Of a stretch of DNA of 64,000 bases, positions 6,470-27,024 are shown one piece after another. Source of the stretch: a phage; assembly GCA_009015555.1 (NCBI GenBank), contig GCA_009015555.1_3613.1. One strand, 5' to 3'. The translations under genes and the position numbers were made by a program. Every line of letters starts with the position of its first letter. Position 1 is the first letter of the stretch. A model generated the notes under the pieces. It saw nothing but the letters and a program-made list of their open reading frames with translations, was not told the origin of the DNA and searched no databases.

Positions 6470-7058
6470 TAATACCCTCCATCGTCAGAGCGAAAAGGAA
6501 CTCCTCCCGGGTCGGGTTTTTGAAGTCCTCAAAATATCCCAGCATGGTCCGGCGGAACAGCGTAACAGGAAAGTCAAACTTATCCGACAGTGATCCGACA
6601 TTTGTACCGACGCCTGTACTGGTCAGGGCAATATCTGAACCCAGCCCGTTCCTGATCCTCTCATCGTTTTGCGTTAAGAGGAACATAGCCATGCCCGGTA
6701 TGTAATCTGATCTTTTGCAACGAGACATCACCTCTGCCAAGTTTTCAGGATACTCCATCCTCTCAAACCCCCGCCCGGTGACGAGGACCTCATCATAGAT
6801 GAGGCCCCTTGTCTTCTCTGCCCAAGACCATTGATTAGTGCAGTAAAAGTTGATCAGGAAATCAACATTCAGCACCTTGTCACGAACAATGATCTCGTCG
6901 AAGTGTTTCCTGTCTACAGACTCGTATGTTTTATCGCGGGAAAGAGTCCCCTGCAAAGAAAACCTCCAGTCCTGCTTATCACTCCGGTCGTAACACAGGA
7001 TAATCTTACGTGTTGCGTTCTTTAAGATTGAATCCCAGTCTTTCTCCGTTTCTCTCAA
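6414..7058 (-). CDS. hypothetical protein (214 aa)
   Basis: Long ORF in operon context; no motif recognised. Confidence 0.45.
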   Translation of the reverse strand: MRETEKDWDSILKNATRKIILCYDRSDKQDWRFSLQGTLSRDKTYESVDRKHFDEIIVRDKVLNVDFLINFYCTNQWSWAEKTRGLIYDEVLVTGRGFERMEYPENLAEVMSRCKRSDYIPGMAMFLLTQNDERIRNGLGSDIALTSTGVGTNVGSLSDKFDFPVTLFRRTMLGYFEDFKNPTREEFLFALTMEGISGNTDREKKAIEEAQLHC

Positions 7059-13905: not shown

Positions 13906-13959
13906 CAACTTCTCCTTTTCTGTTTCAGTGGGGCCATTATACATGACCCCGTTACACTG

Positions 13960-14400
13960 TCAACGACTTTTGTAAATCTTTTCTGCTTCTTCCCGGCGAC
14001 GTTCGTCACGGGCCTTCCTTTCGATGGCACACGCTTCCCGGTAGGCTTTCCGCCGGGCACCGCAGATACCTTCGACCAGACGCAGAACGCGATCCTGCTC
14101 CCAACGGTTCATCCAGTCGAGATCCCCGGAGACAACAGGGGAGCCGTGGAAGTTGTCACGGTAAAGGTACGTCTTCACCTTCCGTTCGTGGTCGAGGATC
14201 ACATAGTCCACAAAGTGGCTACAGCGGTCTCGGTCCGCTTGCGATGGGTTGTCGTACACTTCCAGCTTTTTGGCAGCGATCAATTCGAGAATCCGATTGA
14301 CCGGGGGCCGGGTCATGCGCCTTGGTGTCACGTACTTATCCCATGCCCATACGAGGACCAGAAGAATAAACAAACTTGTGCAGACCCAGAATCCCGTCAT
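13960..14400 (-). CDS. membrane-anchored hypothetical protein
   Basis: N-terminal TM helix WVCTSLFILLVLVWAW. Confidence 0.45.
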   Translation of the reverse strand: MTGFWVCTSLFILLVLVWAWDKYVTPRRMTRPPVNRILELIAAKKLEVYDNPSQADRDRCSHFVDYVILDHERKVKTYLYRDNFHGSPVVSGDLDWMNRWEQDRVLRLVEGICGARRKAYREACAIERKARDERRREEAEKIYKSR

Positions 14401-15850: not shown

Positions 15851-16237
15851 TCAAGCATTATCTGGTGACCAGAGTAACACTGATTCCTCGATCTCAAAAT
15901 CGTAGTCGTCCACATGACCAGACTCCCGGTCGATATGAGTGTGATAACTGCACGTCCAGCGATAAACACCAGGGTCCATGTCATCTACGTCCGGCGGCAG
16001 GCCAAGATACTCCGCCTCCGGGCCGTTGTCCATGATACCGGGATGCAGGTTTGGTGGGTCCAGCACGGTAACCCTTCCAGCATAATCCACCGCCACGATC
16101 CACACACTCCCGTGCGGGGAGTCATATTCCGGCTCTTCGTCAACCATGATCAGCATATCCTCGGTCTCCTCTACTGGAGGATTAAGGCACTTATCGATCC
16201 CGGCGTCAAGCCACTTTTCAGATAAACTCTTACCCAC
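15851..16237 (-). CDS. hypothetical protein (128 aa)
   Basis: ORF only. Confidence 0.45.
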   Translation of the reverse strand: MGKSLSEKWLDAGIDKCLNPPVEETEDMLIMVDEEPEYDSPHGSVWIVAVDYAGRVTVLDPPNLHPGIMDNGPEAEYLGLPPDVDDMDPGVYRWTCSYHTHIDRESGHVDDYDFEIEESVLLWSPDNA

Positions 16238-19269: not shown

Positions 19270-20160
19270 ATGATTCGTGCATATTTAGGCGGAAGTCAGT
19301 TGGACATCGAGTTCAGCACATTTGCCGGGGGCGAGAGAAACGTCCTCATCAAGGGTTTCCAATGGCCCAGTCCGTTCAATGCGGATCTGAAAGAGAAGAT
19401 GCCAGAAGGTAAAGACCTTGTTGTCTACGCCCATGTTGACAGTTCAGATGCCATCATGGACCTGCTGCTGTTTACCGACGCATTCAACCGCATGGGTCGA
19501 GGCACAGGCAACCAGGTGAAGAAGGTCTGTTATGTGCCATACATCCCGTATGCCCGTCAAGACCGAGTGATGGTTCCTGGAGAACCGCTGTCGTCGGCAG
19601 TGTTTGGAACACTTATCAACCTGTGTGGATTTGACCGTATCATTGTTGATGACCCGCACTCAGATGTGTCTCCGTCACACATCAAGAACGTTGCCATTTT
19701 CGAACAATATGAACTGGCCTTGGATATTCTTGGCCCGGGCTTCTTCGACGATGCCGTTATCGTAGCTCCGGACGCCGGGGCAATCAAGAAGGTCACGAAG
19801 TTGGCTCAGAAGGTCAACCACCGTGAAATCGGGGTTGGGACCAAGCATCGTGACCTTATGACCAATAACATCACTGACACGACTTATGCCGGGCCGGATG
19901 TTAATGGTAAGCGTGTCATCATGGTTGATGACATTTGCGACGGAGGTCGTACATTTATCGAGCTTGGTAAGGTTCTCCGTGCCAATGGTGCGAAAGAGGT
20001 TGTTCTGTACACCACGCACGGGATTTATTCCTACGGCGCGGATGTGTTTAAGGACGTTATTGATGAGGTTTACTCCGCCTATCCGTGGATGAAGAACCTG
20101 GAAGGCCGAAACGAAAATAATATTTTCAAATCTGTTGACAAGATGGTTGAGTTCAAGTAA
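19270..20160 (+). CDS. PRPP synthetase (Prs)-family phosphoribosyl-pyrophosphokinase; candidate ADP-ribose pyrophosphate synthetase (Adps) of a NARP1-type pathway
   Basis: Type I PRTase/Prs motif VIMVDDICDGGRTF and Prs-like N-terminal half (PYARQDR); strong RBS GAGGAGAGAGAT-ATG. Confidence 0.75.
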   Translation: MIRAYLGGSQLDIEFSTFAGGERNVLIKGFQWPSPFNADLKEKMPEGKDLVVYAHVDSSDAIMDLLLFTDAFNRMGRGTGNQVKKVCYVPYIPYARQDRVMVPGEPLSSAVFGTLINLCGFDRIIVDDPHSDVSPSHIKNVAIFEQYELALDILGPGFFDDAVIVAPDAGAIKKVTKLAQKVNHREIGVGTKHRDLMTNNITDTTYAGPDVNGKRVIMVDDICDGGRTFIELGKVLRANGAKEVVLYTTHGIYSYGADVFKDVIDEVYSAYPWMKNLEGRNENNIFKSVDKMVEFK

Positions 20161-20211: not shown

Positions 20212-22002
20212 ATGTTACATAACGACCTGCCTATCCTGTTTGCTGACTGGTACAAACCGAGCCATATTTCCATGTACAGCAAACAGTCTGAGATCGTACA
20301 AGACAACATGACCCCACGCTCAAGCAAACACTTTCAGCACTTTTCTGACAGTGACCAGCGCGTCATGTCTGCTGGCCTGCAAGGCTTTATTAAGTGGTTC
20401 CTGATTGAACACTTCAACCGTGAGTTCTTCGGTCGTCCGAAGGAAGAAGTTATCGGGGAGTTCAAAGAGATCTGTGACCTGGCGATCGGCCCAGACATGG
20501 TTGAAACGTGGGGCTTCGAAAAGCTGCATGACCTGGGCTATCTGCCTGTTGAAATCCGCGCCCTGCCGGAAGGTACTCTTTCTCCGGTACAAGTGCCTCT
20601 GTTCACAATTCAGAACACGCACCCGGACTTCTACTGGCTTCCTAACTACCTGGAGTCAGTGATCTCCTCTGAAAACTGGAAAACCGTAACTACGGCAACC
20701 ATTTTCTGGCAGTATCGTAAGCTGGCTGAACTGTGGGCGCAGAAAACCTGCGACAACAACCTGCACGTCCCGTTCCAGATTCATTGCTTCGCTTATCGCG
20801 GCCAGGCTGGCACTCACGATGCGGCCCAGTCTGAACTGGGACAACTGATGAACTCTCAGGGCACCGACACCATCCCGGCGATCCTGTATGCAAACCGTTA
20901 TTACGGTATGAAAGGCAAGTTCGTATCCGGCTCCATCCCGGCATCCGAGCACAGCGTTGCAACAACGAACATCGGGTTCATCATCGGACGCCTCCGTTCT
21001 GAGCATCCGGAAATGTCGCTGGATGACCTGCGTTTCCACGCAGAAGTCGAGTTCCTGCGCCGATACATCACTGAAATCTTCCCGAAAGGTTTCGTGTCTT
21101 ATGTCGGCGACAGTTATGACTGGTTCCGCCTGATCACTCAGGGTGTTCGTATCCTGAAAGACGAAATCATGGCCCGTGATGGTCGTGTGGTATTCCGCCC
21201 GGATTCCGGCGTACCGGAAGACATCATCTGCGGCACACTGGACTGGCGTAAGATTGAAGACCTCGACACGGCAGGTACTCTGGAACGCGCTGCCAATTGG
21301 GCACTGGAAAGTGCCGAAGATGAAGTTCGTGAGAACACCCCGCACGGTGAATGCGGTGATGAATCCGTTGAACGTTACTTCCTGTTCGATGGCGATCTGT
21401 ACCTGATGAAGGGTGAGATTGACTGGAACCGTCACGACAAAACGTATTACTACATCGACGGTCGCCGTGTTCTGTCTTACGAAAAGGCAGAACTCACTGA
21501 TGAGCAGAAAGGTTCTGTTGAACTGCTGTACGATGTGTTCGGTGGCGACCTGAACTCCAAAGGCTATCGTACTCTGGACACCCACGTCGGCCTGATTTAC
21601 GGTGACTCCATCACCGTTGCTCGCGCCAAAGAGATCTTCGAGCGCCTGGAAGCAAAAGGCTTTGCATCGAACAACGTTGTGTTCGGTGTCGGTTCCTTCA
21701 CCACCCAGTTCAACACTCGTGATTCTCTGGGTCAGGCAGTCAAGGCGACAGGCGCGGTTATTGACGGTCAGCAGATCATGGTCGTCAAAGAGCCTAAGAC
21801 CGACCTCGGCAAGAAGTCTGCTCAGGGCTTCCTGAAGGTTGTTCGTGGTGAAGACGGTGAACTGAAGCTGGTTGATAACCTCCAACTGGAGCAAGTCAAC
21901 GATACCGACAATGAACTGCGTGTGGTTTTCCGTGACGGCGTTCTGCTGGTTGACGAAACGCTGACTGAAATCCGTGAGCGTGTCACAGCAAACCTGAAAT
22001 AA
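20212..22002 (+). CDS. Nicotinamide phosphoribosyltransferase (NAMPT/NadV) family protein; candidate nicotinamide ADPR transferase (Namat)
   Basis: 596-aa NAMPT-family translation immediately downstream of the Prs-like gene; RBS GAGGAG; no NMN adenylyltransferase seen in window. Confidence 0.8.
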   Translation: MLHNDLPILFADWYKPSHISMYSKQSEIVQDNMTPRSSKHFQHFSDSDQRVMSAGLQGFIKWFLIEHFNREFFGRPKEEVIGEFKEICDLAIGPDMVETWGFEKLHDLGYLPVEIRALPEGTLSPVQVPLFTIQNTHPDFYWLPNYLESVISSENWKTVTTATIFWQYRKLAELWAQKTCDNNLHVPFQIHCFAYRGQAGTHDAAQSELGQLMNSQGTDTIPAILYANRYYGMKGKFVSGSIPASEHSVATTNIGFIIGRLRSEHPEMSLDDLRFHAEVEFLRRYITEIFPKGFVSYVGDSYDWFRLITQGVRILKDEIMARDGRVVFRPDSGVPEDIICGTLDWRKIEDLDTAGTLERAANWALESAEDEVRENTPHGECGDESVERYFLFDGDLYLMKGEIDWNRHDKTYYYIDGRRVLSYEKAELTDEQKGSVELLYDVFGGDLNSKGYRTLDTHVGLIYGDSITVARAKEIFERLEAKGFASNNVVFGVGSFTTQFNTRDSLGQAVKATGAVIDGQQIMVVKEPKTDLGKKSAQGFLKVVRGEDGELKLVDNLQLEQVNDTDNELRVVFRDGVLLVDETLTEIRERVTANLK

Positions 22003-22006
22003 TTTC

Positions 22007-22029
22007 AGCCGCCCTTCGGGGCGGTTTTT
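22007..22029 (+). terminator. Rho-independent terminator
   Basis: agccgcccttcggggcggttttt immediately after NAMPT-like stop. Confidence 0.7.
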
Positions 22030-22047
22030 AACTATCCGGAGGATGAA

Positions 22048-22206
22048 ATGAAACTGAATGAATCTCAGTATCTGGCGGCAAGAAAGGCGTTTGTGGAAAA
22101 TTCCGTATTCGATAATATCCGTATGTGGGTGGAAGATGGGCAAATGTCAGAGGATGAGCTTCGGGTGTTGATTGGAGAGATCTTCGCTCCCGTGGAGGTA
22201 GAATGA
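22048..22206 (+). CDS. small hypothetical protein (52 aa)
   Basis: ATG with GGAGGATGAA RBS; not in ORF track (<60 aa). Confidence 0.3.
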   Translation: MKLNESQYLAARKAFVENSVFDNIRMWVEDGQMSEDELRVLIGEIFAPVEVE

Positions 22207-22394
22207 GAAACCCAGTTGCACGAAACGACTTTAACCGGGCAGCAACGCACCCAGATCGCTCTAAGCGGCCTCAAAAGACTGTAGACGAGGGTTTGCTCGA
22301 CTACTTTGCAGAAAACGCTGAGAACGTCGCATACAGCGAATATGAACGTGCCTCTACAAACGCTCCGGGCGCTCCCCTTCCACCCGGGCGTTGA
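22203..22394 (+). CDS. hypothetical protein (63 aa)
   Basis: ORF with ATGA overlap to upstream small ORF. Confidence 0.3.
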   Translation: MRNPVARNDFNRAATHPDRSKRPQKTVDEGLLDYFAENAENVAYSEYERASTNAPGAPLPPGR

Positions 22395-22453
22395 CTATCA
22401 TTAAGTCCTCCAGTAAAATGACCATATCACTTGATTAACTTACTGTTGGACTT

Positions 22454-22705
22454 ATGAATCCCTATAAACTCACTCTCAGCTTTATCACCCCTGATTACAC
22501 TTCTGAAGAACATTGTGAGCATTACCCTACCCTTCAAGACGCTCTCGATGACGCCGACGATTTAGCTTTCAGTACCGTCGGATTCCCTCTTGAGGATTGG
22601 CAAAGTGTTGACTTTGGTGAAGGTAATTACTTATACTCGTTTTACCCGAACGAGGTTGATAAAACCTCTCGCTATAAACTGGCAATCCTGAAGGAGGAAG
22701 TTTGA
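22454..22705 (+). CDS. small highly acidic protein (83 aa)
   Basis: Asp/Glu-rich composition (e.g. DALDDADDLAF, EDWQSVDFGEG). Confidence 0.45.
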   Translation: MNPYKLTLSFITPDYTSEEHCEHYPTLQDALDDADDLAFSTVGFPLEDWQSVDFGEGNYLYSFYPNEVDKTSRYKLAILKEEV

Positions 22706-22938
22706 GAAAGTTCCATTACTTAGTCACCATCGACCTGGATGATGACCACCTTGAGCAGATGGTTAAGGACCAGCCTGACCTTATCGACTGCGAGACGTTC
22801 GAAGGAGTAGCCCCGGAAAACTTCGTAAGTGTTTTCGCAGAGAAGATGACCGAAGGTATTGACGAGGCTTTACAAGAAGGTCTCGGTGACGCTGGCAACA
22901 GCAAAGTTAAAACTATTTTCGCAGGAGAATGCAAATGA
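22702..22938 (+). CDS. small highly acidic protein (78 aa)
   Basis: Asp/Glu-rich (TIDLDDDHLEQMVKDQPDLIDCETFEG); ATGA-coupled to upstream acidic ORF. Confidence 0.45.
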   Translation: MRKFHYLVTIDLDDDHLEQMVKDQPDLIDCETFEGVAPENFVSVFAEKMTEGIDEALQEGLGDAGNSKVKTIFAGECK

Positions 22939-23161
22939 ACAGCACCGAATTAGTGATCGGCTACGGAGAAGGCATTCGTAGCGAAGAGGACTGGGGAGTT
23001 TTCGATGAGCGCCCGGACCTTTAATCACCTGCCGGGGGCGGATGACCCCCGGAACCACGAATATAAGGGATACATCTGCCTTTGTTTTGTGTGCGGAAAC
23101 AAATATCTTGGTCCAAAACGCTCGGTTATGTGCAATCTTTGTGCAAACGGTAAAAAGCCTG

Positions 23162-23190
23162 TTGACAAAGAGTAGAGCTACAGGTAATCT
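23162..23190 (+). promoter_or_regulatory. Candidate sigma70-type promoter upstream of tRNA array
   Basis: TTGACA at 23162-23167, 17-nt spacer, TAATCT at 23185-23190. Confidence 0.4.
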
Positions 23191-23477
23191 GAATATGTCC
23201 CGAACGAGATGACAATCAAGTAGGTGGATGGATAAGTCAACCCGGTCTGTTAAACGACCAAAGTGCCATTGCGGTTCGGGTTGAGTTCAGCCGGATAAAC
23301 AGCGGCTCCATCGACGGCCTCTGGAATAGCGACGGTTGCTTCAGGTCTCACGACCACCCGTTACGTGAAACACGCTTTTGCTGGACGAGAAGGGGAAGTC
23401 AACCCCACGGGCATACGTCCTCTGCCCATTTCTCCCTCCCCCGGAGCGTAACAACTACCGGACTTGCTGGGAGACTT

Positions 23478-23553
23478 GCTGGATTAGCTCAGTAGGTAGA
23501 GCGCCTCACTTGTAATGAGGATGTCGCGGGTTCGATTCCTGCATCCAGCACCA
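23478..23553 (+). tRNA. tRNA-Thr (anticodon TGT)
   Basis: Cloverleaf read by eye: acceptor gctggat/atccagc, anticodon loop cttgtaa, T-loop ttcgatt, CCA encoded. Confidence 0.8.
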
Positions 23554-23559
23554 GATCAT

Positions 23560-23636
23560 GCAACGTTGCCGGAGTCTGGTAACGGCTCTCGCTGCAAACG
23601 AGATGAGCACTGGTTCGAATCCAGTACGTTGCTCCA
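23560..23636 (+). tRNA. tRNA-Cys (anticodon GCA)
   Basis: Acceptor gcaacgt/acgttgc, anticodon stem tctcg/cgaga, loop ctgcaaa, T-loop ttcgaat, CCA. Confidence 0.75.
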
Positions 23637-23637
23637 A

Positions 23638-23714
23638 GCGCCTTTGGTCCAATTGGTAGAGGCACTACATTCAAAATGTAGGGGTTCCCAGTTCGAATCT
23701 GGGAAGGCGCACCA
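23638..23714 (+). tRNA. tRNA with CAA anticodon (Leu by anticodon) but short variable arm
   Basis: Acceptor gcgcctt/aaggcgc, anticodon stem ctaca/tgtag, loop ttcaaaa, T-arm cccag-ttcgaat-ctggg, CCA; only 5-nt variable region. Confidence 0.6.
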
Positions 23715-23730
23715 AAATTTATGTAACCTA

Positions 23731-23759
23731 TTGACATAGTGTAATTATACTGCTAATAT
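23731..23759 (+). promoter_or_regulatory. Sigma70-type promoter for the small gene embedded in the tRNA array
   Basis: TTGACA 23731-23736, 17-nt spacer, TAATAT 23754-23759, then RBS and ATG at 23786. Confidence 0.6.
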
Positions 23760-23785
23760 GGATACACTAATTCAATGGGGGCATT

Positions 23786-24160
23786 ATGAGCAAGGCTGCG
23801 ATTGTAACTCGTAAGCGTGGTCGCCCAAGCAAAGAAGAGAGCACAGCAATCGCCCTTGAAAAGGCAATGCTTGATCTCCGAGGCGAATTGGCCCGTCTGA
23901 CGCCGAAGGCCATTCATACTCTCGAAAACCTGCTCACAACAGGCACAGAGAAAGTGAAGGAAACCACGGCGAAGTATATCCTTGAGCAGGCGAAAGAGGT
24001 TAACAACCTCTATACTGAAGAGGATAACGAAGACGACGCAGCAGGCGGCACAACATCTGCCTCTTCTGAAACTCACGCTGGTTCTTCTGACGAGATGAAA
24101 AATGCCATCCCGTTGACAACCCAGATTCGTGAGTATAAAGCAGTAGGCGAAGATGATTAA
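23786..24160 (+). CDS. small protein with AT-hook-like RKRGRPSK motif (124 aa)
   Basis: Own promoter, RBS and downstream hairpin; basic N-terminus, acidic Ser/Thr-rich C-terminus. Confidence 0.5.
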   Translation: MSKAAIVTRKRGRPSKEESTAIALEKAMLDLRGELARLTPKAIHTLENLLTTGTEKVKETTAKYILEQAKEVNNLYTEEDNEDDAAGGTTSASSETHAGSSDEMKNAIPLTTQIREYKAVGEDD

Positions 24161-24162
24161 CT

Positions 24163-24190
24163 GGAAGGCTCCCGAAGGAGCCTTTATTAG
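24163..24190 (+). terminator. Terminator-like hairpin
   Basis: aaggctcccgaaggagcctt hairpin followed by tattag (weak T tract). Confidence 0.4.
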
Positions 24191-24325
24191 AAGTTCTCTT
24201 TTGACGGGCACTTGTTAACGACCCGCAGAATGACGACGGTGTACAACGGCGTTTGATGGCGAGGAAGGTCTATAGGGATCAGCGCAGATCCTTGGATGTC
24301 AGGTGAGCCGTACAAAAGAGAATTT

Positions 24326-24413
24326 GGGGAGTTATTTCCGTAGAGGTAGCGGTGCAGACTGTAAATCTGTTGTCATTGCGACTCGGGTGGTTCGACTCCA
24401 TCACTCCCCACCA
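24326..24413 (+). tRNA. tRNA-Tyr (anticodon GTA), long variable arm
   Basis: Acceptor ggggagt/actcccc, anticodon loop ctgtaaa, T-loop ttcgact, CCA. Confidence 0.75.
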
Positions 24414-24419
24414 AATTAT

Positions 24420-24514
24420 AGTAGGATGGCTGAGTGGCTTAAAGCAGCATCTTGGAAAGGTGTCGGATCAGGTAACCCCTGGTCCCGGGAGTTCAAATCT
24501 CCCTCCTACTGCCA
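24420..24514 (+). tRNA. tRNA-Ser (anticodon GGA), long variable arm
   Basis: Acceptor agtagga/tcctact, anticodon loop cttggaa, T-loop ttcaaat, CCA. Confidence 0.7.
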
Positions 24515-24518
24515 GACC

Positions 24519-24595
24519 GGATCGTTAGCTCAATTGGTTAGAGCAAGGGACTTTTAATCCCGAGGTTCGGGGTTCGAGTCCCTGACGGTCCACCA
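24519..24595 (+). tRNA. tRNA-Lys (anticodon TTT)
   Basis: Acceptor ggatcgt/acggtcc, anticodon loop cttttaa, T-loop ttcgagt, CCA. Confidence 0.75.
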
Positions 24596-24760
24596 GAAAG
24601 GAAGAGGGTCCAAGCTGGTAATGCGAGAGGCGAGTCCTCAGACCAAAGCCCAGATGGAGGCCACCCTAAAGTCGTCCAACCGAAGGTCCCTGATTGAGTA
24701 ATACTTCCCCGCTTGTCGGGTACAGTTCTCAGTCACACCGGAAGGGGCGCACCCTATAAT

Positions 24761-24836
24761 TGACGGTGAGCATATAAGGACATGCGGGGGCCTGTTAAGT
24801 CCAGGATAGCTGGTTCGAATCCAGTACCGTCAGCCA
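24761..24836 (+). tRNA. tRNA-Asn (anticodon GTT)
   Basis: Acceptor tgacggt/accgtca, D-stem gcat/atgc, anticodon loop ctgttaa, T-loop ttcgaat, CCA. Confidence 0.7.
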
Positions 24837-24945
24837 ATTTGGTTCCGACAAGGTGACGGCGCACCCCGGAGCGACGCTGAAAGATGCAGGCCGACGAACA
24901 CATACGTGTACTTAATCAATAGTCATTGCGATGGCTATTCGTTAA

Positions 24946-25023
24946 GTCCTGGTAGACAAACTGGATAAAGTCACCACCCTTTCAAGGTGGGGTTTGAGGG
25001 TTCGATCCCCTCTCAGGACGCCA
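24946..25023 (+). tRNA. tRNA-Glu (anticodon TTC)
   Basis: Acceptor gtcctgg/tcaggac, anticodon stem ccacc/ggtgg, loop ctttcaa, T-loop ttcgatc, CCA. Confidence 0.75.
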
Positions 25024-25117
25024 ATCTTTTAGGTCGGTAGATTAATGAGCAAAGGCCGCTCGCTGGATTCCAACCCCAGTTCAAGGCGTTCGATTCGTCA
25101 CCTTCCTGCCAAATTCA

Positions 25118-25193
25118 GGTCCTATGGTATTAGCGGTAAACATACTCGCCTGTCACGCGAGAGTCACGGGTTCGAATCCCGTTAGGACCGCCA
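25118..25193 (+). tRNA. tRNA-Asp (anticodon GTC)
   Basis: Acceptor ggtccta/taggacc, anticodon stem ctcgc/gcgag, loop ctgtcac, T-loop ttcgaat, CCA. Confidence 0.75.
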
Positions 25194-25200
25194 CTTCAAA

Positions 25201-25275
25201 TGGGGATTAGCTCAGGGGTAGAGCGCACAACTGATAATTGTGAGGTCGGTGGTTCGAAACCACCATCCCCAACCA
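25201..25275 (+). tRNA. tRNA-Ile (anticodon GAT)
   Basis: Acceptor tggggat/atcccca, D-arm gctc-aggggta-gagc, anticodon loop ctgataa, T-loop ttcgaaa, CCA. Confidence 0.75.
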
Positions 25276-25345
25276 AACAGCCCCTCCCGGGATTGGACCG
25301 GGTTAACGGCAATCGCACACTGAGGCGTCTTCCGGGGGAACAATA

Positions 25346-25422
<77 letters not shown>

Positions 25423-25428
25423 AATTAT

Positions 25429-25503
25429 TGCGAGGTAGTTCAGCGGTAGAACAGGGGTTTCATACGCCTCATGTCGGCAGTTCGATTCTGCCCTTCGCAA
25501 CCA
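25429..25503 (+). tRNA. tRNA-Met (anticodon CAT; initiator, elongator or Ile-lysidine type not distinguished)
   Basis: Acceptor tgcgagg/cttcgca, anticodon loop ttcatac, T-loop ttcgatt, CCA. Confidence 0.7.
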
Positions 25504-25509
25504 AATCAT

Positions 25510-25587
25510 GCTCCAGTAGCCCAATTGGTAGAGGCACTTGATTTAGGATCATGTCAGCGATGAGTTCGAATCTCTCCTGGAGTACCA
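25510..25587 (+). tRNA. tRNA with TAG anticodon (Leu by anticodon), short variable arm, weak T-stem
   Basis: Acceptor gctccag/ctggagt, anticodon stem cttga/tcatg, loop tttagga, T-loop ttcgaat with only ~3 bp T-stem, CCA. Confidence 0.5.
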
Positions 25588-25593
25588 CATAAA

Positions 25594-25667
25594 GCGGGCA
25601 TGGTATAGTGGTTGTGCCTTAGCCTTCCAAGCTAATGAGTCCGGTTCGATCCCGGATGTCCGCTCCA
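25594..25667 (+). tRNA. tRNA-Gly (anticodon TCC)
   Basis: Acceptor gcgggca/tgtccgc, anticodon stem ttagc/gctaa, loop cttccaa, T-loop ttcgatc, CCA. Confidence 0.75.
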
Positions 25668-25740
25668 ATTCACGGTGAGTCACTGCCGTTAAGTGTGAAG
25701 TTAAAAATGCCCGTGGTGATCGGGTTATCTCACCCAGTGT

Positions 25741-25816
25741 AGGGGATTAGTTTAATTGGTAAAACATCGGGTTTTGATCCCGACATCGCGAGGTTCGAAT
25801 CCTCCATCCCCCGCCA
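25741..25816 (+). tRNA. tRNA-Gln (anticodon TTG)
   Basis: Acceptor aggggat/atccccc (A1-C72 mismatch), anticodon stem tcggg/cccga, loop ttttgat, T-loop ttcgaat, CCA. Confidence 0.7.
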
Positions 25817-25898
25817 CATTAATGCTCATTAGCTCTTGTCAGTGGAACTCGAACCCTTAGAGCAGGCGACACAGACGTGTGTTTTAGTGAGCATCAAT

Positions 25899-25974
25899 GT
25901 GGCCTTAATTCAGCAGGTAGAATCCCCGGTTGTGAACCGGGCAGTCGTGGGTTCAAGTCCCACAGGTCACCCCA
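25899..25974 (+). tRNA. tRNA-His (anticodon GTG)
   Basis: Acceptor gtggcct/aggtcac, anticodon stem cccgg/ccggg, loop ttgtgaa, T-loop ttcaagt, CCA. Confidence 0.75.
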
Positions 25975-25978
25975 ATCT

Positions 25979-26071
25979 GGAAGATAGGGCGTAGTGGTAC
26001 GCACCCGGATTTGAACCCCGGCCCGCTGTGGCGACCCCACGGTGATAGTTCGACTCTATTATCTTCCGCCA
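25979..26071 (+). tRNA. tRNA-Ser (anticodon TGA), long variable arm
   Basis: Acceptor ggaagat/atcttcc, anticodon loop tttgaac, long variable arm, T-loop ttcgact, CCA. Confidence 0.65.
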
Positions 26072-26092
26072 CCCCTGATCATAAGGCAAACT

Positions 26093-26785
26093 ATGTTAGA
26101 AATGTTAACAGTGGGTAAATACACCCCTAGTCCTATAATTTCTAGCCCTATGGATGCTTATTTTGAGGGCGAGAGGAATAATAAATACGGCACTGTTGAG
26201 TGGGTTGTTCCTCAAGGCGTCACCTCAATCTGCTGTGTAGTGATAGGCGCAGGATCTTCTGGCAGAAGCGGCGGTCTTTCTTGGAGAAACAACATTCCAG
26301 TTACACCTGGTGAAAAACTTAAAATGCAGGTTAACTCCACAGCCAGCGCCCTCTTGAGAGAGACAACTATCCTTTGTGCTGCCCAGTGTGGCGGCAACGG
26401 AGGAAAAACATATAACTCTGTGAACGACGGTGGAGGCAATGCTGGACAATCACCACATGGTAGAGGTGGTGCTGGCGGCTACACCGGGAATGGTGGTGAT
26501 GGGCATACGTTCACAGGTGGTCCAGGACCAGGGTCCCCAGGTTCAGGTGGCGGCGGCGGCGGAGGCGCAGTTGTGTATCTGAACGGATCATTGACACCAA
26601 CTGTCTGCGGCGGAGTCGGCATGTATGGACAGGGGTCGAATGGTGGCGCTGATAACAGCGCCGGATATCCAGGCTCCGGCGGTTCTGGAACAAGATACGG
26701 AAGAGCAGTCGATGGTTATGGTGTTGTCAGGGTTGTGTGGGGAAATTATTCATTCCCAACAAATGCCCCGAGACCGAAATCCTGA
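26093..26785 (+). CDS. glycine-rich hypothetical protein (~230 aa) embedded in tRNA array
   Basis: Start taken at MLEMLTVGKY (track ORF start at 26042 lies inside tRNA-Ser); Gly-rich GGxGG runs and C-terminal GYGVVRVVWG. Confidence 0.5.
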   Translation: MLEMLTVGKYTPSPIISSPMDAYFEGERNNKYGTVEWVVPQGVTSICCVVIGAGSSGRSGGLSWRNNIPVTPGEKLKMQVNSTASALLRETTILCAAQCGGNGGKTYNSVNDGGGNAGQSPHGRGGAGGYTGNGGDGHTFTGGPGPGSPGSGGGGGGGAVVYLNGSLTPTVCGGVGMYGQGSNGGADNSAGYPGSGGSGTRYGRAVDGYGVVRVVWGNYSFPTNAPRPKS

Positions 26786-26856
26786 TAGGGATGGTCCCTA
26801 CGAGGATCGTCTTTTGCTCAGTGGTACTCAGCATTTACTTAGTATTCAAACAATAT

Positions 26857-26943
26857 AGAAGAGTGGCGAAATAGGTAGCCGCACCGGACTGCTAATCCGG
26901 GGTCCTTCGGGGCCTGAGAGTTCAAGTCTCTCCTCTTCTGCCA
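26857..26943 (+). tRNA. tRNA-Ser (anticodon GCT), long variable arm
   Basis: Acceptor agaagag/ctcttct, anticodon stem ccgga/tccgg, loop ctgctaa, T-loop ttcaagt, CCA. Confidence 0.75.
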
Positions 26944-26948
26944 AGCAT

Positions 26949-27024
26949 GGAACTGTAGCTCAGTTGGTAGAGCGGTTGCCTGAAGAGCAGCGCGTCAGCG
27001 GTTCAAATCCGTTCAGTTCCACCA
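26949..27024 (+). tRNA. tRNA-Phe (anticodon GAA)
   Basis: Acceptor ggaactg/cagttcc, D-arm gctc-agttggtaga-gagc, anticodon loop ctgaaga, T-loop ttcaaat, CCA. Confidence 0.8.

Follow-up and report, generated by a model that had tools for sequence, protein, structure and literature searches.

The window, a 64-kb stretch of DNA, came from a myophage that is Certrevirus-like and falls in the subfamily Vequintavirinae. The nearest relatives over positions 22000-23300 were the Pectobacterium phages DU_PP_I/DU_PP_IV, the Cronobacter phages CR3/CR8 and phage phiTE, at 90-97% nucleotide identity. Two short acidic genes, ORF A and ORF B, headed a putative operon flanked by the NAD+ genes on one side and the tRNA/terminase/structural block on the other, outside a cluster of short minus-strand ORFs. 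The features of the locus were as follows:

19270-20160, plus strand: Prs-type gene (Pfam Pribosyltran/Pribosyl_synth)
20212-22002, plus strand: Nampt-type gene (Pfam NAPRTase)
22048-22206, plus strand: small acidic ORF of 52 aa, between the Nampt-type gene and ORF A
22203-22394, plus strand: small DUF7230-like ORF of 63 aa, between the Nampt-type gene and ORF A
22391-22419, plus strand: promoter-like site of sigma-70 type, TTGACT-N17-TAAAAT, 35 nt upstream of ORF A
22454-22705, plus strand: ORF A, ATG start, 83 aa, acidic protein modelled as α/β, phrog_5676
22691-22705, plus strand: predicted coupling junction of A and B, with Shine-Dalgarno AAGGAGG at 22691-22697, B start codon TTG at 22702-22704 and A stop codon TGA at 22703-22705
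22702-22938, plus strand: ORF B, TTG start, 78 aa, acidic, phrog_14656, member of the B/C' cassette family described below
22935-23024, plus strand: acidic ORF of 29 aa, phrog_6828, in ATGA overlap with the stop codon of B at 22935-22938
23005-23175, plus strand: basic, Cys-rich ORF of 56 aa (CxxC...CxxC), phrog_8931, the last protein gene ahead of the tRNA array

The tRNA array lay downstream of the operon and began with a tRNA-Thr at 23478.

An earlier note on this DNA had described two strongly acidic ORFs of 83 and 78 amino acids at 22454-22938, and both were confirmed, overlapping by four bases. Computed values bore out their acidity: ORF A had a pI of 4.10 and a net charge of -12 (17 Asp+Glu against 5 Lys+Arg; 20.5% Asp+Glu), and ORF B a pI of 4.26 and a net charge of -11 (18 against 7; 23.1%). 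Of 98 crude ORF calls in the window, a single one, a 128-aa ORF on the minus strand at 15851-16237, was more acidic per residue than these two, which leaves A and B in second and third place. Small phage proteins are often acidic, as were two neighbouring tiny ORFs, so charge alone was weak evidence of function. Both genes were annotated as coding sequences in every related phage genome, and both gave end-to-end matches to PHROG families, A to 5676 (E-value 2e-39) and B to 14656 (4e-51). Compared with relatives, dN/dS was 0.02-0.12 for A (against Certrevirus relatives, at dS up to ~1) and 0.14-0.49 for B, a coding constraint that identifies A and B as real genes under selection. An RNA element in place of the ORFs was rejected, as the pattern of dN/dS was one of coding constraint and an Rfam search of 22454-22938 found no family, returning one sub-threshold snoRNA match only (E 0.4).

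The overlap of A and B had been reported as ATGA. The junction letters are gTTTGAg: the start codon of B is a TTG at 22702, which makes TTGA the four letters that the two genes share; the ATGA overlap occurs one gene further on, at 22935-22938, between B and the 29-aa ORF. Three observations supported the TTG start: the AAGGAGG Shine-Dalgarno sequence lies 4 nt upstream, the N-terminus that it yields, MRKF(H/Q)Y..T(I/V)DLDD, is the best-kept stretch of B, and ATG occupies the equivalent position in POP15 and SSBI34. A stop/start overlap (TTGA or ATGA) was retained in CR8, CR9, phiTE, KaOmega, F1M1E, SSBI34 and A7_1, and equivalent overlaps were present in all relatives carrying B. With an overlap and an internal Shine-Dalgarno sequence kept in relatives, A and B are predicted to be translationally coupled; the start of B also falls inside a weak local hairpin, which slightly favours coupling. 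The chain of short genes continued downstream, where the 29-aa ORF overlapped the 56-aa Cys-rich ORF. Orthologs of the 29-aa ORF followed C' (a second small gene, described below) in F1M1E and KaOmega and came directly after A in PVP-SE1 and KpS8.

Placement of the pair immediately downstream of an NAD+ module was correct as to direction and inexact as to distance, since 452 bases, holding two small ORFs and the promoter-like site, separate the end of the Nampt-type gene (22002) from ORF A. In relatives, DNA methylase or HNH genes were inserted in this interval. By its architecture the Prs-type/Nampt-type pair appears to be NARP1-like, corresponding to the Adps+Namat genes of NARP1, a proven counter to NAD+-depleting defences (bioRxiv 10.1101/2024.02.11.579819). 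Synteny running from Prs and Nampt to A was retained in Certrevirus, Seunavirus, Mydovirus, SSBI34 and ChuuTotoro, and in Bas54 and A7_1 the locus held A but no Prs/Nampt. The constant neighbour of A is the head of the tRNA region and not the NAD+ module. The suggestion of a counter-defence island accordingly survived in part: the neighbourhood does hold a NARP1-type pair and a tRNA array, and in phiTE the downstream tRNA region carries a pseudo-ToxI (a search of the 64-kb window found no pseudo-ToxI), while the tie between A and the NAD+ module did not hold. These counter-defence functions raise the prior for a similar role of B and lend the island idea some support.

The promoter-like site was found by a consensus scan, and its -35 and -10 hexamers were conserved in Certrevirus, SSBI34, ChuuTotoro and A7_1 despite diverged flanks, so that the site was kept across relatives of ~40% identity. 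The motif GTTGAC-N17-19-TANAAT occurred twice in 64 kb against 0.09 expected occurrences. In the paper on phage CB7 a similar sigma70-like promoter is described as conserved in Certrevirus and as clustering in putative early regions (PMC7344957). Sigma-70-like promoters are found throughout rV5-type genomes (PMC3606486), so the candidate promoter is no proof of early expression, and we infer the timing of A and B expression. On the plus strand no terminator-like site was found between the 56-aa ORF that ends the operon and tRNA-Thr at 23478, which makes transcriptional read-through from the operon into the tRNA array plausible.

ORF A was a core gene of the whole subfamily Vequintavirinae. Searches with tblastn recovered 94 records carrying A when the window protein was the query and 228 when the PVP-SE1 ortholog was used, spanning Certrevirus, Seunavirus, Mydovirus, Vequintavirus (rV5 and the BASEL phages) and Erwinia phages. 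When 5.8 billion proteins were searched with a profile, 52 clusters were recovered, all of stand-alone proteins of 81-118 aa on phage-sized contigs, and a Rosetta-stone search of these clusters found no fusions of A to other proteins. One 118-aa member of the family was labelled 'metallo-beta-lactamase', which looks like a misannotation. Within Certrevirus, A kept 90-98% identity among the phages of Cronobacter, Pectobacterium, Klebsiella, Enterobacter and Pantoea. It was present without B in Seunavirus, Mydovirus and Vequintavirus, and, given the occurrence of A alone in the first two of these genera, A and B are not an obligate pair. Patchy occurrence, fast divergence and exchange, the marks of an arms-race accessory gene, were not seen for A, a core gene with dN/dS of 0.02-0.12.

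The net charge of the A family was negative throughout (-6 to -15), and 11 alignment columns were at least 80% acidic (E19, D29, D32, D33, D35, D36, E47, D53, E56, E67 and D69), alongside ten conserved aromatic and three conserved basic columns. An AlphaFold2 model of A (pLDDT 87.7) had the topology β-β-α-β-β-β, an open five-stranded sheet with one helix, and an independent BFVD model of the CR3 ortholog superposed on it at TM 0.95. Five of the 11 conserved acidic columns (D29, D32, D33, D35 and D36) lay on the sole helix, residues 27-42, and helical periodicity places these carboxylates on what is probably an exposed face. A BFVD fold search with the model matched uncharacterised phage proteins only. 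Structure prediction, called for by the earlier note, gave an Ocr-like fold for neither A nor B.

ORF B had a different history. It was limited to 24 Certrevirus-like records among the ~228 that carry A, at identities of 35-96%, and when both genes were compared within one genome pair its dN was 10-20-fold higher than that of A. Between KaOmega and phiTE, dS was 0.04 for A and 1.18 for B, a gap that means allelic replacement and not just faster drift. Binned identity of the window to KaOmega was 95-100% over 22240-22720, fell to 47-72% over 22720-22880 and then returned to 82-100%, so that the divergent core of B was bounded by conserved flanks, as at a mosaic boundary. One B allele (96% identity) was common to Cronobacter and Pectobacterium phages, and the alleles of the two Cronobacter phages CR8 and CR9 were just 44% identical. 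From its patchy occurrence, divergence, exchange and position beside counter-defence genes, B behaves like an arms-race accessory gene, a pattern that does not in itself imply anti-defence activity.

In CR9, POP15, F1M1E, KaOmega, phiTE, SSBI34 and A7_1, B was followed by a further ORF of ~75 aa, here called C' (phrog_28002, E-value 3e-21), which was missing in the window. B and C' were paralogous (hhalign 88%, E 3e-6), and a joint B/C' profile, run as an HMM exhaustively over 1.84 billion representatives, found only 22 true relatives, all of 71-80 aa. The slot after A was found as A alone, A-B, A-B-C', A-C' and A-C'-B, the contents in metagenomic contigs being A-C' or A-C'-B; it held zero to three B/C' members, whose order varied and which were in every case linked through overlapping stop and start codons. 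The A, B and C' families are already catalogued in PHROGs, only as 'unknown function', and the families of B and C', unlinked there, were joined here by hhalign. What is new, and only mildly so, is the B/C' paralogy and the A-anchored cassette slot.

Net charge in the B family ranged from -3 to -14, and the only acidic columns kept were D11, D13, D14, E55, D63 and E76, so the acidity of B is compositional and not positionally conserved. In the AlphaFold2 model of B (pLDDT 82.7), helices spanned residues 15-23 and 38-61, and the N- and C-terminal segments were extended and unpaired. These terminal segments were the conserved parts of the protein and the helical middle the variable part. Conserved but unpaired termini in the model suggest oligomerisation or docking on a partner; they could also have arisen in the modelling, given how shallow the alignment was (32 sequences). 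The model had no fold match in the PDB.

Comparison with characterised proteins gave no match to either family. Neither A, nor B, nor any of 53 homologs matched a Pfam family at E<=1, the Ocr family included, and NCBIfam returned no match for A, B or any homolog. Searched against PDB sequences, the A and B family profiles hit only 8etq, a designed repeat protein, and that match was compositional. No relation of sequence or fold to Ocr, ArdA, Arn, UGI or a similar mimic was found for A or B, and neither showed similarity to RNA-processing or RNAP-binding families. A link to tRNA maturation through T4 Cef or the Trna.2-4 ORFs was considered and rejected, as these did not match the A or B profiles; T4 Cef is not adjacent to the T4 tRNAs. 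No publications were found on the A/B locus tags or PHROG identifiers.

Published experiments bear on A through its distant orthologs. In the BASEL study, Vequintavirinae were 'exceptionally susceptible' to RM systems and without effective protection (PMC8594841). All BASEL-tested Vequintavirinae carry an A ortholog (~40% identity), which makes a broad Ocr-like anti-restriction role of A unlikely. One of the phages concerned, Bas54 (phage MaxBurger), was included in a HIDEN-SEQ preprint (10.1101/2025.11.20.689424). Bas54 lacks B, and its A ortholog, bas54_0218, is ~40% identical to A. In that preprint bas54_0218 tolerated insertions at 16 of 19 TA sites and was called non-essential; on K-12 its mean insertion count was 12.1, compared with 128-140 for genes 0216, 0217 and 0219 (10.1101/2025.11.20.689424). 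On a clinical isolate the count was 35.6 (log2FC +1.49, p 0.028, adjusted 0.195), a value to be read with the observation that the tables are identical for both isolates (10.1101/2025.11.20.689424). The fitness cost of disrupting bas54_0218 was gene-specific and not polar, since the downstream gene 0219 was unaffected. Because the cost arose on a laboratory host, a general fitness factor fits better than a narrowly defence-specific one. That host, K-12 BW25113, is one that we take to be without EcoKI restriction.

We tentatively favour the reading that A and B are protein-binding inhibitors of host factors, A a general one and B an exchangeable arms-race accessory, and put its chances somewhat short of even. 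A and B would open a short operon that is driven by the conserved sigma-70-type promoter and continues through two further tiny ORFs towards the tRNA array, and their products would be small, stoichiometric inhibitors. In A, the conserved carboxylate row (D29, D32, D33, D35 and D36) adjoins conserved aromatic residues and might allow the protein to dock on a target conserved across Enterobacterales, at a basic surface that probably binds nucleic acid, so that A would act as a general host-takeover or fitness factor and not as a defence-specific one. B is one allele of the paralogous B/C' family, which occupies a swappable slot after A and is exchanged by recombination. Its conserved terminal strands may serve oligomerisation or docking, and the variable helical hairpin may contact a host target that itself varies, a strain-specific defence protein being the most plausible candidate. 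Binding, targets and any counter-defence role of A or B, like the timing of their expression, we infer. Against the reading speak the lack of resemblance of A and B to any characterised inhibitor and the position of the operon next to the late structural block, and for A it is weakened by the ~40% identity of the Bas54 ortholog and the absence of B from that phage.

Possible, if somewhat unlikely, is a phage-internal or housekeeping role of A and B unrelated to immunity, in takeover of the host RNA polymerase or nucleoid or in the expression or maturation of the tRNA cluster. The whole subfamily carries A, invariably at the head of the tRNA region whether the NAD+ genes are present or not, no terminator-like site stands between the operon and the first tRNAs, and disruption of the Bas54 ortholog costs fitness even on a laboratory host. 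Certrevirus phages, moreover, are without an RNA polymerase of their own, and modifiers of the host enzyme are expected among their genes (PMC7344957). Such a role is hard to square with the rapid allelic turnover of B, and the acidic charge speaks against direct binding of tRNA or DNA; the lack of similarity to T4 Cef, Trna.2-4 and RNA-processing or RNAP-binding families also counts against it.

A bolder form of the inhibitor reading, which we consider unlikely, would have A mark a conserved, promoter-equipped cassette slot in Vequintavirinae-like phages, where new-fold B/C' proteins undergo duplication, loss and recombinational swapping; these would be strain-specific defence inhibitors, and A an anchor for finding them by association, comparable to aca for anti-CRISPRs. 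Less probable again is a heteromeric complex in which A would be the constant scaffold, the terminal strands of B/C' would extend its β-sheet and cassette exchange would retarget the whole. Every B/C' member was seen directly downstream of A or of another member, with overlapping codons that would favour equimolar co-translation, and the extended termini of B, unpaired in the monomer model around a variable helical hairpin, could be accommodated by the open five-stranded sheet and single helix of A. Against this, A does its work in Seunavirus, Mydovirus and Vequintavirus with no B/C' present, it hardly varies where B changes by more than 60%, the termini of C' differ from those of B, and the adjacency may merely mark an insertion hotspot.

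It is very improbable that A and B are Ocr-like DNA mimics, inhibiting R-M, BREX or other DNA-targeting defences through surface carboxylates arranged like the DNA backbone: their size and charge lie in the range of known small DNA mimics, one helix of A bears a conserved acidic row and the neighbourhood is rich in counter-defence elements, but neither protein is related in sequence or fold to Ocr, ArdA or any solved mimic, the acidic positions of B are not conserved, the A-carrying Vequintavirinae remain 'exceptionally susceptible' to RM (PMC8594841), and A is a constrained core gene whose loss is already costly on K-12 BW25113. The prior is also low, as DNA mimics make up 11 of the 268 anti-defence proteins catalogued in the EVADES preprint, which makes acidity alone a weak predictor of mimicry. 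The interpretation given in the earlier note is thus partly supported as a description of genomic context, and the mechanism that it proposed, DNA mimicry against restriction, is unsupported.

Should B and C' be defence inhibitors, as the favoured inhibitor reading would have it, the two would make up a new family whose fold has no match and whose genomic address is easily recognised, directly after a core gene and beside NARP1 and the tRNA array. Were this true, that address would help the mining of counter-defence genes in therapy and biocontrol phages of Cronobacter, Pectobacterium, Klebsiella, Salmonella and E. coli. A, for its part, would be a new factor for host takeover in a subfamily that has been little studied, if its target is a conserved nucleic-acid-binding protein of the host; the transposon data on its distant ortholog already show a measurable fitness effect. 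At present A and B, orphan genes with well-defined limits, make reasonable candidates for a counter-defence screen; they are not a discovery.

The operon shares features with three known systems. Like Ocr (T7 gp0.3), ArdA, Arn and gp5.9, A and B are small, strongly acidic and associated with a host-type promoter; both have the low pI and high Asp/Glu content typical of the DNA-mimic class, and A has a conserved row of carboxylates on a helix, probably on its exposed face. Ocr, however, is an elongated, all-helical dimer with the shape of bent B-DNA, whereas A is modelled as an α/β protein and B as a helical hairpin with loose termini, and the charge density of A and B (about -0.14 per residue) is below that of Ocr and other mimics. 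With respect to NARP1, the NARP1-like pair lies on the same strand, 452 bases upstream of A, but A and B have their own candidate promoter and are set off from Prs/Nampt by variable inserts. From the arrangement of the locus across relatives, A and B are neighbours of the NARP1 pathway and not members of it, as they appear to be neither co-transcribed nor co-inherited with it. The likeness to anti-CRISPR loci, where variable acr genes sit beside aca, is one of organisation: here too a conserved anchor, A, is joined to a slot of exchanged small B/C' genes, and A and B/C' stand together in one operon with its own candidate promoter.

The acidic pair, ORF A (83 aa) and ORF B (78 aa), was flanked on both sides by short ORFs, with a tRNA array downstream. 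The features of this neighbourhood, together with two on the opposite strand elsewhere in the window, were:

13936-13964, minus strand: exact match to the promoter pattern GTTGAC-N17-19-TANAAT
15851-16237, minus strand: 128-aa ORF, net charge -24, pI 4.05; phrog_4953 (unknown function)
20212-22002, plus strand: Nampt/Namat-type gene, second of the NARP1-like Prs/Nampt pair, uninterrupted, 596 aa
22203-22394, plus strand: 63-aa ORF whose N-terminal MRNPVARNDFNRA motif is conserved
22935-23175, plus strand: 29-aa acidic ORF (phrog_6828) and an overlapping 56-aa ORF (phrog_8931)
23478-27024, plus strand: array of 18 tRNA genes
23731-23759: promoter-like site upstream of the 124-aa ORF
23786-24160, plus strand: 124-aa ORF within the tRNA array; phrog_3330

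Downstream of ORF B, the 29-aa ORF (motif GYGEGI...ERPDL) and the Cys-rich 56-aa ORF (CxxC...CxxC) were chained to it by overlaps, and both were kept throughout Vequintavirinae; in relatives, the 29-aa ORF came after C', a ~75-aa paralogue of ORF B, or directly after ORF A. Upstream, the 63-aa ORF matched DUF7230 slightly below the Pfam cut-off, and it varied in its C-terminal part, with 63 aa in the window against 109-113 aa in CR9, POP15 and the metagenomic contig L020. The Nampt/Namat-type gene was split by HNH-endonuclease insertions in phiTE, DU_PP_I and CB7, and in CR3 and CR8 a DNA methylase gene lay between it and ORF A.

The most acidic protein of the window was encoded by the 128-aa ORF, which had no Pfam match and, on charge alone, is a better DNA-mimic candidate than ORF A or ORF B. 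The minus-strand promoter match, the only further exact one within the window, sat among a cluster of short minus-strand ORFs and probably represents a further promoter of the early type.

The operon that begins with ORF A ended 300 bases before the tRNA array, and no terminator-like site was found between the two. Within the array, the 124-aa ORF shared 34% identity across 67 aa with bas54_0220, which was called essential in the HIDEN-SEQ transposon data on Bas54, with 1 of 20 TA sites hit (10.1101/2025.11.20.689424). In the analysed copy of that study's Extended Data Table 8, the final rows of resampling sheets S6 and S7 (K-12 vs CFE303 and K-12 vs CFE311) were numerically identical, suggesting that one sheet was duplicated in the source file. 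The pseudo-ToxI repeat had no match in the window with up to three mismatches allowed; in phiTE (L003), this antitoxin-mimicking RNA against ToxIN is located in the tRNA region (6880-6938), ~2.3 kb downstream of that phage's ORF A.
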